Of a stretch of 64,000 nucleotides of DNA, positions 54,291 to 61,647 are shown piece by piece (positions within the stretch are counted from its first letter, which is position 1; each line of letters starts with the position of its first letter). Location of the stretch: NCBI GenBank assembly GCA_029882685.1, contig JAOUKH010000001.1, positions 3,159-67,158 on the forward strand. Reading direction: 5' to 3'. Source of the stretch: Cyclobacteriaceae bacterium. Its GTDB lineage: Bacteria; Bacteroidota; Bacteroidia; Cytophagales; Cyclobacteriaceae. Under the pieces are notes generated by a model. That model was not told the origin of the DNA, did not search any database, and saw only the letters and a program-made list of their open reading frames with translations. A program made the position numbers and the translations under genes.

Positions 54291-54830
54291 ATGAAGAAGT
54301 TATTAATATATTCCATTGCATTATTTTTTATAAACAGCGTTTATGCTCAAAAATATAAAAGTGATAAAAGTGCTGTAACTTTTTATTCGGTGGCTCCAAT
54401 AGAAAATATTGAATCTACCAATATCAAGTCGCAAAGTATGCTAGATATTTCAAACCAAAACATTGTTTTTTCTATTCCGATAGATGGTTTTGAATTGGAA
54501 AAAGCATTAATGCAAGAGCACTTTAATGAAAAATATATGGAAACTGAAAAATTTCCAAAATCTACGTTTTCAGGAAAATTTGATGGTTTTGATATAAACA
54601 AAGAAGGGAATCAGGAAGTAAAAGCCAAAGGTAAACTTACCATCCATGGGGTTACTAAAACAATTAAAGTTTCTGGAAATATGAAATTTGAAGAAAATAG
54701 AATTGTATTGACTTGTACTTTTAAAGTGAAGCTGGATGATTACGAAATTGCAAGACCCCAAGTATTATGGCAGAATATTGCAGAAGTAGTAGATGTGAAA
54801 TTGTTATTCGAATATGCCAAAACCGATTAA
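54291..54830 (+). CDS. YceI family (polyisoprenoid-binding lipocalin-like) protein, copy 1
   Basis: Signal peptide, then the YceI-like pattern KSAVTFYS...FPKSTFSGKF...GKLTIHGVTK. 179 aa. Confidence 0.8.
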   Translation: MKKLLIYSIALFFINSVYAQKYKSDKSAVTFYSVAPIENIESTNIKSQSMLDISNQNIVFSIPIDGFELEKALMQEHFNEKYMETEKFPKSTFSGKFDGFDINKEGNQEVKAKGKLTIHGVTKTIKVSGNMKFEENRIVLTCTFKVKLDDYEIARPQVLWQNIAEVVDVKLLFEYAKTD

Positions 54831-54891
54831 CCTATGTTTAAACATGTTTAAAAAAAACACTAATTTTGAAATTCTAAAATCAATAATATAT

Positions 54892-55902
54892 ATGCGCATT
54901 TTTTATTTAATTGTTTTTGTATTCCTTTTGGCTAGTTGTGGACATAACGAGGAACTAACTCTTGATTGTAGTTTAGCACCTATAGATTTGAAAGTTGGTA
55001 AAGTTGTGGCGACAGATTGTGGAGTAAATATAGGTGAAATACATGTGGAGGCTTTAGGAGGAAATGGAGGCTATATGTATAGCTTAGATGGAACTAATTT
55101 TCAGGCAGAAGCTATATTTACCAGTTTATCAGCAGGTCAATATACTGTTTATGTTACAGATAAAGGAGATTGTGCTGCTCAGGTGAACGCAACTGTTCTT
55201 GATAATGGCAATGTTTCTATATCAACACCTGTATCTACCCAAAATGCAGATTGTGGTGTTTCAAACGGTTCACTTACTGTAGCTGCTACGGGAGGGGATG
55301 GTGTTTATTTGTATAGTTTAGACGGAGGTATACCACAAGCCGAACCATTATTTTCTCAATTAAATGCTGGAACATATACCGTTACAGTTGAGGATGGTAG
55401 TGGATGTGTGGCAATATCTACAGCTGTTATTGCAAATAACAATGGCATAATAGTTGATAATGTTGATAAAACTGATGCAGGTTGTGGAACTACACTAGGG
55501 GGTATAACTATTAACGTTTCTGGAGGAGACGGAACATATAGCTATAGTATTGATGGGACTACCTTTCAAGCGTCTAATAGTTTTACTGGTCTATCTAACT
55601 CTATTTATATGGTATCTATTAAAGATAATTCGGGATGTACAACATCTGTAGATGTCTCAGTATTGTCTGGTGTTAGTTTTCAGCAACAAGTAAAGGCGAT
55701 AATTGATGGTAATTGTGCAACTGCTAACTGTCATGTAGGAAGGGGAAGAACAGATCTTACACAATGGAGTGTAATACAAGCAAATTCAGAAGATATAAAG
55801 TCTAGAGTATTATCTGGTAACATGCCTAAAACAGGGACTTTAACTCAAAATGAAATTGACTTGATAGTTTGTTGGATAGATGATGGAGCTATAGATAATT
55901 AA
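54892..55902 (+). CDS. Lipoprotein with three SprB-type repeats and a C-terminal PSCyt1-like (cytochrome-like) domain
   Basis: Lipobox FLLASC. Three units of about 75 aa of the form DCG...G.I.V...GG.G.Y.YS.DG..FQ....F..L..G.Y.V.V.D..GC. The C-terminus has CATANCH...MP...LTQNEIDLIVCWIDDGA. ATG at 54892 is preferred. Confidence 0.7.
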   Translation: MRIFYLIVFVFLLASCGHNEELTLDCSLAPIDLKVGKVVATDCGVNIGEIHVEALGGNGGYMYSLDGTNFQAEAIFTSLSAGQYTVYVTDKGDCAAQVNATVLDNGNVSISTPVSTQNADCGVSNGSLTVAATGGDGVYLYSLDGGIPQAEPLFSQLNAGTYTVTVEDGSGCVAISTAVIANNNGIIVDNVDKTDAGCGTTLGGITINVSGGDGTYSYSIDGTTFQASNSFTGLSNSIYMVSIKDNSGCTTSVDVSVLSGVSFQQQVKAIIDGNCATANCHVGRGRTDLTQWSVIQANSEDIKSRVLSGNMPKTGTLTQNEIDLIVCWIDDGAIDN

Positions 55903-55906
55903 AATC

Positions 55907-56446
55907 ATGAAGAAGATATTTTTAATATTAATTGTTCTATTTAGTTTTAGTAGCATACATGCCCAAAAGTATAAGAGTGATAAAAGCACAGTAACTTTTT
56001 ATTCAGAGGCAGTAATAGAAAACATTGAGGCTACTAATAATAAAGCGCAAAGTGTATTAGATGTTACCAACCAAAATATAGTTTTTTCTATTCCTATTGA
56101 TGGGTTTGATTTTGAGAAAGATCTGATGCAGGAACATTTTAACGAGAAATATATGGAAACTGAAAAATTTCCAAAATCTATATTTTCGGGAAAATTCTCA
56201 GGATTTGACATCAATAAAACAGGCAAACAAAAAGTTGCAGCAAGTGGGAAGTTAACCATTCATGGTGTTGAAAGAAAAATAAGTGCTGAAGGGATAATGA
56301 TTGTGGAAGGAAATAAAATTAAATTGAGTAGTAGTTTTAAAGTAAAACTGAAGGATTATAAAATTGCTATACCACAACTGCTTTGGCAAAACATAGCAGA
56401 GGAGGTTGAAGTTGAATTATTATTTGAATACGCCAAAATCAATTAA
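55907..56446 (+). CDS. YceI family protein, copy 2
   Basis: 179 aa. Aligns without gaps to copy 1 at about 70% identity (125/179 by hand count). Confidence 0.8.
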   Translation: MKKIFLILIVLFSFSSIHAQKYKSDKSTVTFYSEAVIENIEATNNKAQSVLDVTNQNIVFSIPIDGFDFEKDLMQEHFNEKYMETEKFPKSIFSGKFSGFDINKTGKQKVAASGKLTIHGVERKISAEGIMIVEGNKIKLSSSFKVKLKDYKIAIPQLLWQNIAEEVEVELLFEYAKIN

Positions 56447-58070: not shown

Positions 58071-58271
58071 AGAATTTGTTTTTTCAATGATAGTGATAAT
58101 CAATTGATGTACAAAATTATAAACCATCATAAAAACCATTGAGGATTAATAATAAAGGATGTCTAATGACAAATAGTACATTTGCAAATGTTATTTACTA
58201 CTACGTCCAATGAAGACATTAAAAAATTATGTAAATAAGATTACTATGTTAGGTTTCATGTCGTAACGCAG

Positions 58272-58350
58272 AAAAAACCAACATATTTAAGCATATTTGG
58301 TTTTTTGCCATCACACTAAGCCGACTCTAAAAAACCAAATGTGCTTAAAT
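58272..58350. promoter_or_regulatory. Alternative-hairpin / inverted-repeat element upstream of the methyltransferase operon
   Basis: aaaaaaccaa (58272-81), ttggtttttt (58297-306) and aaaaaaccaa (58329-38). A 22-bp stem (58285-306 / 58329-50, one T-G pair) competes with a 10-bp stem (58272-81 / 58297-306). Confidence 0.3.
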
Positions 58351-58451
58351 CTCCCCACCCATCATGAAGCATGACTGAATTAGCAAAGAATCAAGCTATG
58401 ACTTGAAAAGGCCTTAATAATTCTCTATTTTTAGGGGTTTTTATCTAAGCA

Positions 58452-59510
58452 ATGACAAAGAAGAAAAAATATCTAGCAGTTGACGTTTTCTCAGGAGCTG
58501 GAGGGCTAAGTCTTGGGGCAATTAACTCAGGAATTGAAGTGATTCTAGCAGTTGAGAGAGATAAATATTCAGCCGAAACATTTAAGAGTAACCACCCTGA
58601 AACTAAAGTATTAAATGAAGACATCAATGATATTGATTTATCTAACATTAATATCGAGTCTCCCTTTATTTTATTTGGAGGGCCTCCTTGCCAAGGATTT
58701 TCATTGTCTAATACCAAAACAAGGAATAATGACAACCAGAATAACCACTTATTTAACAAATATTTCAAATGGGTTGAGACACTTCAACCAACTTGGTTCC
58801 TATTTGAAAATGTAGAAGGAATAGTTAGCTATAATGAGGGCAAAACAGTAGAACACATTCAATCACTTTTTGAATCAGTTGGGTACACTGTCAAAAAAGG
58901 TGTTCTTACTGCATCGGATTATGGAGTTCCTCAAGACCGAAACAGGTTTTTTATGATTGGGAACAACCAAGGCATTGACTTCACCTTTCCTGAAAAATTA
59001 GACCTTAAAGTATCCGTTAGTGAAGCATTGGGTGATTTGCCCAACTTAAATAATGGAGATTGTTATGACGAACAACCATATCAAATCAATAACGTGTCTA
59101 ATTATTCAAAATTGATGAGGGGTACTTCTAATTTGGCAACTCAAAACTACGTATCCAGAAATCAAGACTATGTAGTTGAGAGATATAGACATATCAAACC
59201 AGGTCAAAATTGGAAGGCCATCCCAGATCATTTAATGACTAACTACTCCAATAAAAACAATTGTCATAGTGGGATTTACAAACGATTAGACCCTACCAAA
59301 CCCTCAGTTGTGATATCAAACTATCGCAAGAATATGTTAATCCACCCTTTTGAAGATCGAGGACTATCCGTCAGAGAAGCTGCACGTCTTCAAAGTTTTC
59401 CTGACAATTTTAAATTTTCGGGGACACTTATGTATATTCAGCAACAAATAGGTAATGCCGTTCCTCCTTTAATGGCAGAAGCCATTTTCAGAAAAATACT
59501 TTCATATTAG
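58452..59510 (+). CDS. dcm: DNA (cytosine-5)-methyltransferase
   Basis: All canonical m5C motifs: I DVFSGAGGLSLG, IV GGPPCQGFS, VI FLFENVEG, VIII QDRNRFF, IX REAARLQSFPD, X GNAVPP. Confidence 0.95.
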   Translation: MTKKKKYLAVDVFSGAGGLSLGAINSGIEVILAVERDKYSAETFKSNHPETKVLNEDINDIDLSNINIESPFILFGGPPCQGFSLSNTKTRNNDNQNNHLFNKYFKWVETLQPTWFLFENVEGIVSYNEGKTVEHIQSLFESVGYTVKKGVLTASDYGVPQDRNRFFMIGNNQGIDFTFPEKLDLKVSVSEALGDLPNLNNGDCYDEQPYQINNVSNYSKLMRGTSNLATQNYVSRNQDYVVERYRHIKPGQNWKAIPDHLMTNYSNKNNCHSGIYKRLDPTKPSVVISNYRKNMLIHPFEDRGLSVREAARLQSFPDNFKFSGTLMYIQQQIGNAVPPLMAEAIFRKILSY

Positions 59511-59514
59511 CCTT

Positions 59515-61647
59515 ATGTCAAACGAAAAGAATAACCTGAAATTCCGCTTTGATGTAAGTGCTTATCGTCTATTGGGAAGAGAGCTAATCACAGATCGAAT
59601 TACAGCTCTTTTCGAATTGGTTAAGAATTCCTATGATGCAAACACAGATAAAGTCCATGTTTATTTTGATTCTGTAAATCCTAAGACCGAGGAAAGTAAA
59701 ATAGTTATCCAAGATGATGGTCTTGGAATGACACTAACCGACCTTAAAGACAAATGGATGGTTATTGGAACCAGTAGCAAAAGGAGGAATAGGGAATCTC
59801 CAGCTCCCTACAAAAGAAAGGTCGTAGGAAAAAAAGGGGTTGGAAGGTTTGCTGTTGATAAACTTGGTGCAAAGCTTTTACTTAGAACAACAAAAAAAGG
59901 TAGTGATAAGCTTATATGCTTGGAGACTGATTGGTCTCAATATGCTGATTTGGAACTAGAGCAACTCAAAATTGACTTTGAAAAGACCAAGGAAAAACAA
60001 CAGTTCTTTACTGATATTGAAAATAAGTACTGGTTTGAAGATGCTGATATTGACATACAGGGAACAACGCTTGAAATTTCCAAAATCAGTGAAACTTGGA
60101 CAGAAAGTGATTTAAAGAGAGCAAATACTGAGTTATCAAAACTCATCTCTCCTAACCATCAAACCAAGTATCCATTTGAAATAACTATTCACTCAACGGA
60201 TTATTCTGAATTTAAGAAAAAAGTTGTTGAGAGTATTGCCATACAGTACGCCACCGTAGAGGCTTCTTTGTCATTCGACTTTGAAACTGGGAAGCAACAA
60301 ATTCTCAAAGCAGAAAATGGGGAACTTAGGACTATTGAAGTCGAGAAGAGGTCATGCGGATTTCTTAAAATGAATATCTATTATTTCGATCAACCTGCTA
60401 AGAATAAATTCAAAAAAGTATTTTCTGATGAACTTATTGACGGTATTAAGGTCTATAGGGATGGTTTAATAGCTACTCCTTTTGCTGAGTACTCAGGTAC
60501 TCAAAACGAGCAAAAAGACCTTCTAGGAATTGACAAACGTAGATACTCATATTTTTTCGACAGGTTGGGGACTCGGGATTTATTGGGAAGCATTGAAATC
60601 ACAGATGTCCTTAATCCAGGAATTATAGATGCTACAAATCGACAAGACTTTGTTGATAATAAAGAATGGCACGAGCTTCGAAAGTATGTTATCGAGCAGA
60701 TATCTCAAATTGAAGCATATCTAAAACAAACCAGAGAGACTAAAAAAGCGAAAGTTGATTCCGAGCTAAAGGGGGCTGGTGATGATCTGAGTCAGATAAG
60801 AAAAGAGCTCAATAAGATCAGTAAATCTGCTCCTGTTGAGATGAAAGAAACCATTGATGCAATTGAAAAACAAGTGGCAAAAACTCAGGTTTCTGTAAAT
60901 AAAGGACTTAAAACCAAAATCACCCTAGAAGAAGAAAAAAAGCAACAAGAAAGTCTGTTATTCAGTTTAATTTCTCTGCAGACTTTTTCTTCAACACTTG
61001 CCCATATAACCAGAACCATAATTGGACGGATAAAAAGAACTTCCGAGTTCTTCAAAGAGAGATTTCCAGACCCTAAATTCGAAGAGGTTTTCAAGAAAGG
61101 TGCTGAGAAGATATTCAACGAAATGGAAAAACTCAGTGGAGCAATTGATTTTATGCTGAAATACGCTAAATCAGATTCAAAAATTGAAGAAGTAGATGTA
61201 AAAACTACCTTGGAGAATCTATTTGGAAATATCCACGATTACACATTCCAACAAGAGGATATAAAATATGAATTAGTAGTCAAAAAAGATTTGATTTTGA
61301 ACTACAATCAAACGGCATTTGAAGACATAATAGAAAATCTAATATCTAACTCCACAAAAGCCCTTATGGACGTTTCAGAAAAGAGACTGATTAAATGTGA
61401 ATGTCTGATCGAGAATGATAAATTAGTAATTTTATTTTCAGATAATGGGTCAGGTATAAAAGAAGAAGATCAGTTCCGAATATTTGATGTGTTTTATACT
61501 ACAACAGCCGAACAAGGTGGAGCTGGAATGGGCCTTTTCATTATTAAAACTAGATTAGAAGCAATCCAAGGGTCAATTGAATTGGTTGAAAGTCAATTCA
61601 AACCAACAGGAGCAACATTTAAAATCACCTTTCCATTCAAAAGATGA
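59515..61647 (+). CDS. Cytoplasmic dual-GHKL protein: N-terminal MORC/Hsp90-like ATPase fused to a C-terminal histidine-kinase core (DHp + CA)
   Basis: N-terminal Bergerat motifs ELVKNSYDA (N38), DDGLG (67-71), GKKGVG (105-110). K/E-rich coiled region about 400-480. H-box-like TLAHITRT (H497). C-terminal N-box ENLISNSTKAL, G1 DNGSGI, F IFDVFYTT, G2 GGAGMGL. No TM segment. Confidence 0.8.
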   Translation: MSNEKNNLKFRFDVSAYRLLGRELITDRITALFELVKNSYDANTDKVHVYFDSVNPKTEESKIVIQDDGLGMTLTDLKDKWMVIGTSSKRRNRESPAPYKRKVVGKKGVGRFAVDKLGAKLLLRTTKKGSDKLICLETDWSQYADLELEQLKIDFEKTKEKQQFFTDIENKYWFEDADIDIQGTTLEISKISETWTESDLKRANTELSKLISPNHQTKYPFEITIHSTDYSEFKKKVVESIAIQYATVEASLSFDFETGKQQILKAENGELRTIEVEKRSCGFLKMNIYYFDQPAKNKFKKVFSDELIDGIKVYRDGLIATPFAEYSGTQNEQKDLLGIDKRRYSYFFDRLGTRDLLGSIEITDVLNPGIIDATNRQDFVDNKEWHELRKYVIEQISQIEAYLKQTRETKKAKVDSELKGAGDDLSQIRKELNKISKSAPVEMKETIDAIEKQVAKTQVSVNKGLKTKITLEEEKKQQESLLFSLISLQTFSSTLAHITRTIIGRIKRTSEFFKERFPDPKFEEVFKKGAEKIFNEMEKLSGAIDFMLKYAKSDSKIEEVDVKTTLENLFGNIHDYTFQQEDIKYELVVKKDLILNYNQTAFEDIIENLISNSTKALMDVSEKRLIKCECLIENDKLVILFSDNGSGIKEEDQFRIFDVFYTTTAEQGGAGMGLFIIKTRLEAIQGSIELVESQFKPTGATFKITFPFKR

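Follow-up and report, generated by a model that had tools for sequence, protein, structure and literature searches.

Histidine kinases that carry a second, MORC-type GHKL ATPase are already in the literature, and one relative of theirs has experimental support. Bellieny-Rabelo, Pretorius and Moleleki (2021, PMC8011034) found HATPase_c_3 combined with a DHp-like domain, HEF_HK, and with HATPase_c in 174 of 222 sequences. These kinases are soluble, occur in several phyla including Bacteroidetes, adjoin a gene for a response-regulator-like protein in 91.6% of 644 regions and have C5-methylases upstream; the same authors proposed descent from paraMORC ATPases, suggested that HATPase_c_3 acts as a sensor replacing the classical sensor domain, and emphasized a core His-Glu/Asp pair (PMC8011034). 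Here we analyze a kinase of this general design from a Cyclobacteriaceae bacterium (GenBank assembly GCA_029882685.1, contig JAOUKH010000001.1, positions 3,159 to 67,158 of the forward strand; this whole stretch of 64,000 nucleotides is called the window below). The dual-GHKL sensor histidine kinase is encoded by an uninterrupted open reading frame (ORF) of 710 aa at positions 59515..61647 of the window on the + strand, the second gene of a four-gene cassette, and by sequence it is a member of the dual-GHKL family of AbrB-like kinases, named here for a component of the Ambrosia phage defense system. A first-pass annotation of the window, made without database searches, had considered a GHKL ATPase as the input domain of a sensor kinase to be undescribed, a claim contradicted by the 2021 report (PMC8011034) and by the requirement for the homolog AbrB in phage defense (bioRxiv 10.1101/2025.09.30.679545).

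Ambrosia was described in Pseudomonas aeruginosa and comprises AbrR (XRE), AbrA (an N6 methylase), AbrB, AbrC (a REC protein) and AbrD (HNH), all of which are needed for phage defense (bioRxiv 10.1101/2025.09.30.679545). AbrB has 747 aa with HATPase_c_3 and HATPase_c domains, and defense is abolished both by AbrB N40A, a substitution in the N-terminal ELVKNAYDAD motif, and by AbrC D60A (bioRxiv 10.1101/2025.09.30.679545). When compared by BLASTP with the N-terminal 399 residues of AbrB that are printed in Table S1 of the preprint, and which cover the head and middle domain, the window kinase is 28% identical over aa 20-381 (E 6e-30). The ATPase head has an older precedent in the paraMORCs, which were defined with nuclease, TIR or unknown-domain outputs in restriction-modification (R-M) systems by Iyer, Abhiman and Aravind (2008, PMC2292703), in a paper that mentions no histidine-kinase output and from which the words "receiver" and "two-component" are absent. 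The window kinase resembles these MORC and paraMORC proteins in its intact N-terminal GHKL plus transducer-like domain, in its linkage to a methylase and in belonging to a group with variable C-terminal outputs, but differs in that its own output is a histidine kinase. Finally, the Detocs system reportedly uses a phosphorelay for phage defense with a REC-linked effector instead of a transcription factor, and no methylase. Its likeness to the window cassette is conceptual only; sensor and effector differ, and PADLOC gave no Detocs match for any of the four window proteins.

What appears to be new at this locus is the last gene of a conserved four-gene cassette, which encodes a small caspase-like protein and not a nuclease. 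The cassette consists, all on the + strand, of a gene for a C5 cytosine DNA methyltransferase (Dcm-type, 352 aa, 58452..59510), the kinase gene, a gene for a response regulator (202 aa, 61644..62252; hereafter REC protein) and a gene for a 203-aa protein, P4 (62245..62856). Our preferred reading, which we consider to have about an even chance of being right, is that the kinase belongs to a mobile cassette and signals by phosphorelay through the REC protein to the caspase-like P4 in phage defense. A literature search for a link between paraMORCs or histidine kinases and caspase or CHAT proteins returned nothing relevant.

Both GHKL domains lie in the one polypeptide and score above the Pfam gathering cut-offs: HATPase_c_3 (PF13589) at aa 30-144 (E 3.3e-25, 89.1 bits, cut-off 25) and HATPase_c (PF02518) at aa 599-709 (E 4.1e-22, 79.1 bits, cut-off 26.4). 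The motifs quoted in the first-pass annotation are all in place, namely ELVKNSYDA (aa 34-42), DDGLG (67-71), GKKGVG (105-110) and GTTLEI (183-188) in the head and, in the kinase core, TLAHITRT (494-501, with His497) followed by the N box (608-613), G1 (643-647), F (657-662) and G2 (668-673). In an alignment of 45 homologs with 55-87% identity, E34, N38, D67, G69, G71, G105, G108 and G110 of the head and H497, N608, N612, G645, G669, G671 and G673 of the core are invariant, and the G1, F and G2 boxes are conserved throughout; His497 is kept in 106 of 109 wider relatives. An AlphaFold2 model (mean pLDDT 75.8, moderate at 320-380) divides the protein into a GHKL head of the MORC/paraMORC type (aa 1-210, 59515..60144), a beta-rich, transducer-like middle domain (aa 222-362, 60178..60600), a lysine/glutamate-rich helical linker of two long helices (383-438 and 441-484; 60661..60966), a DHp hairpin (aa 488-550, 60976..61164) with helices 488-516 and 520-550, the first of which bears the predicted phospho-acceptor His497 (61003-61005), and an alpha/beta catalytic ATP-binding (CA) domain (aa 558-710, 61186..61644; modeled over 558-707).

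Structural comparison agrees with this division. Foldseek against the PDB matches the core to the DHp-CA parts of HK853, YycG and ZraS (E ~1e-13, TM score 0.6-0.7 on the target), and PDB kinase sequences align to the window kinase over aa 490-709 (E 4.6e-11). The head and middle domain together match MORC2 (9cdh, 9cdj), MORC3 (5ix2), SMCHD1 (6mw7) and Hsp90 with E 1e-12 to 1e-11 over ~450-480 aligned columns; with TM scores of 0.38-0.47 the MORC-type match is one of the overall fold, and the middle domain is a candidate for the S5-fold transducer of MORC proteins. Thus the MORC/Hsp90-type head and the DHp-CA core proposed in the first-pass annotation are both borne out, and neither of the computational outcomes that the annotation had named as refuting, a single significant GHKL domain or the lack of a DHp hairpin, was observed. 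The middle domain carries the motifs YRDG..P(F/Y), DKRR and TNR(Q/E), which AbrB shares, as do relatives of 25-30% identity. Of the coiled coil proposed between head and core, the lysine/glutamate richness (31% K+E over aa 383-484) and the predicted helicity held, but hydrophobic heptad periodicity did not exceed that of shuffled sequences (624 of 2000 and 367 of 2000 shuffles reached the observed value), and we therefore speak of a helical linker, not of a coiled coil. The kinase has no transmembrane-like segment (maximum 19-residue hydropathy 1.23) and is predicted to be soluble.

The REC protein matches PF00072 (E 4.3e-10, 40.2 bits, cut-off 30.2) and has the acidic pair D11-D12, the phospho-acceptor D58 (61815-61817), S88 and K110, with D12 and D58 invariant in 26 REC sequences. 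Its start codon overlaps the kinase stop codon (ATGA). The remaining ~80 aa form a strongly conserved C-terminal domain for which neither Pfam (16 members searched) nor a PDB profile search gave a significant match, including any helix-turn-helix (HTH) or winged-helix signal; a single member had a weak match to EAD11 (E 0.008). This tail and P4 co-occur, and in distant cassettes both are swapped together.

P4 is probably a minimal caspase-like protein of clan CD (the caspase, gingipain, separase and legumain-like peptidases) that retains a predicted catalytic dyad, as judged from its modeled fold and invariant residues. The AlphaFold2 model is of high confidence (pLDDT 96.4, pTM 0.92), and Foldseek relates it to gingipain R (1cvr; E 3.7e-4, TMq 0.57), caspase-1, caspase-7, separase and legumain, with TMq 0.45-0.57 and probability 0.96-1.0 across these clan-CD matches. 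Clan-CD peptidases have a His-Gly ... Ala-Cys arrangement at the ends of consecutive strands. In the P4 model, strand 60-65 is followed by His67-Gly68 (62443-62448) and strand 93-98 by Ala99-Cys100 (62539-62544); the protein evolves fast, yet D9, H67-G68, Y96 and C100 are invariant in 56 homologs, and the residue before Cys100 is Ala or Ser across the family, giving an (A/S)C motif. Asp9, placed after strand 1, would be compatible with a preference for a basic P1 residue, as in gingipains and metacaspases. P4 shares the fold and dyad of the clan-CD peptidases but has only ~200 aa, no prodomain and no Pfam family, and one homolog is named "CHAT domain-containing protein" in UniRef. Its gene overlaps the REC gene by 8 nt.

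The arrangement is strongly conserved. Among 83 related loci that were fetched, the order Dcm-kinase-REC-P4 is complete in 81, and one of the other two ends at a contig edge; a Dcm gene lies directly upstream of the kinase gene in 81/83, and the junctions are typically overlaps or gaps of ≤6 nt. In the window, 4 nt separate the Dcm gene from the kinase gene. The Dcm product is well supported as a methyltransferase (PF00145, E 2.3e-70; TIGR00675, E 2.1e-63; PADLOC MTase_II, E 7e-118) with the catalytic Cys80 in GGPPCQGFS (codon 58689-58691). A search for promoters and terminators was uninformative, with counts equal to the shuffle expectation. PADLOC assigned the four window proteins to no named system, matching solely MTase_II (Dcm) and REase_II/MzaB-like models (kinase head). 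No nuclease is universally linked to the cassette among the 83 loci, and the window has none, which leaves P4 as the sole conserved candidate effector. Minority neighbors include a downstream McrB-like AAA_5 gene (15 loci), Vsr (11 loci) and HNH_2 (6 loci), with Schlafen/AlbA_2, AAA_15/21 and RhuM at some loci and a second methylase at a few; in some genomes the McrB-like and HNH_2 genes stand 3' of the cassette on the same strand. Upstream, an HTH gene matching a Maribacter HTH protein is present in 10/83 loci (Maribacter, Tenacibaculum and at least 8 others), and clustering of the genes around the loci gave further small HTH-like families. Since the flanks differ between genomes and are often of the defense or R-M type, the cassette is suggested to be mobile. 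It is complete on three IMG/VR viral or prophage contigs, and a Stenotrophomonas rhizophila plasmid carries the four genes in this order as well, with a kinase of only 31% identity and a last gene that again encodes SHGS and ISCGT motifs.

The McrB-like protein (~530 aa) is encoded directly 3' of P4 on the same strand in these 15 loci (e.g., L044:5146-6738). A putative methyl-dependent restriction component beside a Dcm cassette is odd, and it recalls the pairing of a methylase with a type IV nuclease that has been envisaged for Ambrosia.

The window cassette shares with Ambrosia the order of methylase, dual-GHKL kinase, ~200-aa REC protein and small fourth protein; AbrB N40 corresponds to N38 of the window kinase, the phospho-acceptor Asp is present in both REC proteins, and in some related loci an XRE/HTH gene precedes the cassette. 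The window methylase is a C5-cytosine enzyme (PF00145) whereas AbrA is an N6-adenine methylase; the fourth protein resembles clan-CD peptidases whereas AbrD is an HNH nuclease, and P4 and AbrD show no sequence similarity; the window REC protein resembles AbrC in the REC fold alone; Ile comes after His497; and the host is one of the Bacteroidota, not the Gammaproteobacteria. Because the methylase class differs and neither an HNH nor an XRE gene is present, the window cassette falls outside Ambrosia as strictly defined, and it is best read as a sister variant in which a caspase-like effector under REC control takes the place of the nuclease. With the kinases of the 2021 study (PMC8011034) the window kinase shares the three-domain order, solubility, a response-regulator-like neighbor and an upstream C5-methylase, but its REC protein passes the classical PF00072 model, its H-box lacks the His-Glu/Asp pair, and no caspase-like partner such as P4 is characterized in that paper. 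Neither PF19191 (HEF_HK) nor PF19192 (Response_reg_2) gave a match in the window proteins (for PF19191 not even at E ≤10), in 65 diverse relatives, in AbrC or in the plasmid homologs, the Stenotrophomonas REC protein among them, with the limit that the Pfam copy used may lack these models. We treat the window clade as a divergent sister clade.

In the preferred reading, the soluble kinase would dimerize through its DHp hairpin, and its N-terminal GHKL and transducer module would bind and hydrolyze ATP as MORC, MutL or Hsp90 do. A cue related to infection or to DNA would change the conformation of the head, the part in which the corresponding site of the homolog AbrB is essential, and the change would pass through the helical linker to the DHp-CA core, leading to autophosphorylation of His497. 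It is plausible that ATP-driven dimerization or DNA clamping is coupled to autophosphorylation in this way, as the first-pass annotation proposed, and that methylation is sensed. The phosphoryl group would then move from His497 to Asp58 in the REC protein, whose translation is coupled to that of the kinase, as the adjacency of the genes and the conserved residues suggest. In the weakest step of this proposal, the phosphorylated REC protein would switch on P4 through its private C-terminal domain of ~80 aa, for example if phosphorylation-induced REC dimerization joined two P4 protomers. Active P4 would cleave a host or phage target and so stop the infection, and Dcm would either mark self DNA or join the response. 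A post-translational licensing of P4 is favored because searches of the REC protein detect no DNA-binding domain, because P4 alone is universally conserved besides the methylase, kinase and REC genes, because the REC and P4 genes overlap, and because the REC tail and P4 are retained or exchanged as a pair throughout the superfamily. A wider proposition is that these are R-M-derived immune cassettes, present in at least 224 species genomes, mainly of Bacteroidota, where a phosphorelay has taken over from the nuclease output of a methylase-linked paraMORC ATPase and directly licenses a minimal caspase-like protease via phosphorylation-induced dimerization of a REC adaptor, without transcription. 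This we put forward tentatively, as a possibility that we would sooner doubt than assert.

Several observations weigh against the preferred reading. Among the families named for checking in the first-pass annotation, HATPase_c_3 and HATPase_c were significant but HisKA (PF00512) stayed under threshold at aa 488-555 (14.3 bits vs 26.9, E 0.044). The residue after His497, Ile498 (61006-61008), is Ile or Met in 45/45 close relatives; in the wider relatives that keep the His it is Glu in 69/106 and Asp in 4/106. An acidic residue at this position is usual in HisKA kinases, where it assists catalysis. The chemistry or kinetics of the window kinase may therefore be atypical. For P4, sequence searches of Pfam, PADLOC and NCBIfam, including Peptidase_C14, CHAT, C13 and C25, and of the PDB found no match, and its structural matches in Foldseek score modestly (best E 3.7e-4), with lower-scoring flavodoxin-like folds interspersed. 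Ordinary genes flank the window cassette, which lies in no obvious defense island, and no XRE/HTH controller is found upstream of its Dcm gene (58140-58451), a 312-bp spacer without an ORF of >25 aa. In addition, the Ambrosia authors favor transcriptional control by the response regulator, their reporter fusions being induced on infection (bioRxiv 10.1101/2025.09.30.679545).

Transcriptional induction of this kind is the main rival to the licensing of P4. The kinase would sense infection and phosphorylate the REC protein, whose tail would then be an unrecognized DNA-binding module that induces the operon, with toxicity arising from Dcm, from P4 or from both; in a variant of this explanation, a linked type IV nuclease (McrBC, HNH) would in some genomes act on the newly methylated DNA. 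With a REC tail of unrecognized fold this explanation keeps some probability, and it draws support from the model for the homologous Ambrosia, from the HTH genes upstream of a minority of loci and from the same-strand McrB-like and HNH_2 genes 3' of the cassette. Neither Pfam nor the PDB profile, however, gave an HTH or winged-helix signal in the tail, the likeness to AbrC ends with the REC fold, most loci, the window included, are without a nuclease, and the window is without a controller HTH gene. On balance we judge a transcriptional switch to be rather unlikely here. Another explanation keeps closer to the ancestry of the head: the cassette could be an R-M derivative with self/non-self discrimination, in which the GHKL head and middle domain read an unmethylated Dcm site, as in GHKL-headed type II enzymes of the BbrUII/HgiDII family, and the protein signals this by phosphorelay where those enzymes would cut DNA. 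The head is indeed closest to the GHKL heads of R-M enzymes, resembling BbrUII/HgiDII-type restriction enzymes (NF050001, E 6.9e-20, below the NCBIfam cut-off) and matching PADLOC REase_II models (E 1.7e-11 and 3.1e-08; window 59515-59890, aa 11-125) together with a MzaB-like model; a Dcm gene is linked upstream at nearly every locus, and published work on paraMORCs finds ATPases of this type within R-M systems (PMC2292703). The similarity is nevertheless confined to the GHKL head and covers no specificity domain, and the kinase family also pairs with Eco57I-like N6-adenine methylases while the middle domain is still conserved. Moreover, phage grown on the Ambrosia methylase alone stayed sensitive (bioRxiv 10.1101/2025.09.30.679545). 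Because methylase classes vary and cognate methylation gave the phage no protection in Ambrosia, strict methylation sensing is weakened and its simplest form is argued against, and we regard this explanation as improbable.

Least probable in our view is a role outside defense, either as a housekeeping regulator (of epigenetic state or stress) or as a degenerate kinase that acts as a scaffold or phosphatase. Such a role would fit the Ile or Met after the His in the whole clade, public annotations that read just "sensor histidine kinase" or "ATP-binding protein", and the ordinary genes flanking the window cassette. Against it stand a patchy and mobile distribution (plasmid, prophage-like contigs, changing flanks), the invariance of all ATP-site residues and of His497, and the demonstrated defense role of the homolog AbrB (bioRxiv 10.1101/2025.09.30.679545).

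The family to which the kinase belongs is very large. In a collection of 5.8 billion proteins, the best 120 homologs share 54-100% identity with the window kinase; nearly all have 705-718 aa, and both Pfam domains are present in nearly all. They include an identical protein in Cyclobacteriaceae and proteins of Tenacibaculum, Maribacter, Algibacter, Flavobacterium, Bacteroides and others. When one genome per species was scanned, 224 genomes had a close relative, and carriers of the cassette are mostly Bacteroidota. Beyond these, phmmer against 1.84 billion cluster representatives (clusters at 50% identity) yielded 574 clusters at E ≤ 1e-30, many matching end to end at 28-33% identity, and among 65 diverse relatives scanned with Pfam HATPase_c was present in 65/65 and HATPase_c_3 in 61/65. 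Distant kinases (23-38% identity, 740-822 aa) on IMG/VR viral contigs have a parallel cassette, in the order Eco57I-like N6-adenine methylase, kinase, response-regulator-like protein of ~365 aa and unknown protein of ~250 aa (L096:4556-9997, L098:1242-7057, L093, L100 and L101), the last two proteins mostly without a Pfam match. On Campylobacter plasmids a response regulator of 340 aa and a cytosine methylase come after the kinase. Constant across the superfamily are a methylase, a MORC-headed kinase and a REC protein, with an exchangeable output.

Some relatives extend the range of architectures and hosts. Proteins of 1140-1220 aa (P0167, P0185, P0212, P0221 and P0225) match solely aa ~370-710 of the window kinase, with 36-41% identity, and a Sacsin (SACS) domain was found in 5 members of the Pfam scan that covered these proteins. 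Sacsin is an Hsp90-like ATPase module, which suggests that the linker-DHp-CA core is also fused to a different GHKL-type head. Relatives of 43-58% identity were also found in metagenome-assembled genomes labeled Thermoplasmatota archaeon, Rhizobium sp. and Treponema/Spirochaetes (L010 = JAOZSQ010000102.1, L068, L053, L067 and L082), records that reflect either horizontal transfer beyond Bacteroidota or binning contamination.

Only a single member system of this family has been tested experimentally. Since the head matches REase_II models, standard defense annotation tools will probably take the kinase for a restriction enzyme of type II, and cassettes of Dcm plus kinase would be filed as ordinary type II R-M pairs; AbrB itself is tagged RM_Type_II REase in the preprint table (bioRxiv 10.1101/2025.09.30.679545). 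If P4 is a REC-controlled protease, the cassette would represent a post-translational two-component output in bacterial immunity, and it would also offer a compact and tractable model of how MORC-type ATPases turn a nucleic-acid or infection cue into a signal.

Elsewhere in the window, positions 54291-54830 and 55907-56446 encode two paralogous, secreted-looking proteins of 179 aa that both start with MKK and have extended identical segments in common, among them NQNIVFSIPIDGF and LMQEHFNEKYMETEKFPKS. Between them lies a lipoprotein-like ORF of 362 aa with internal repeats (54814-55902).

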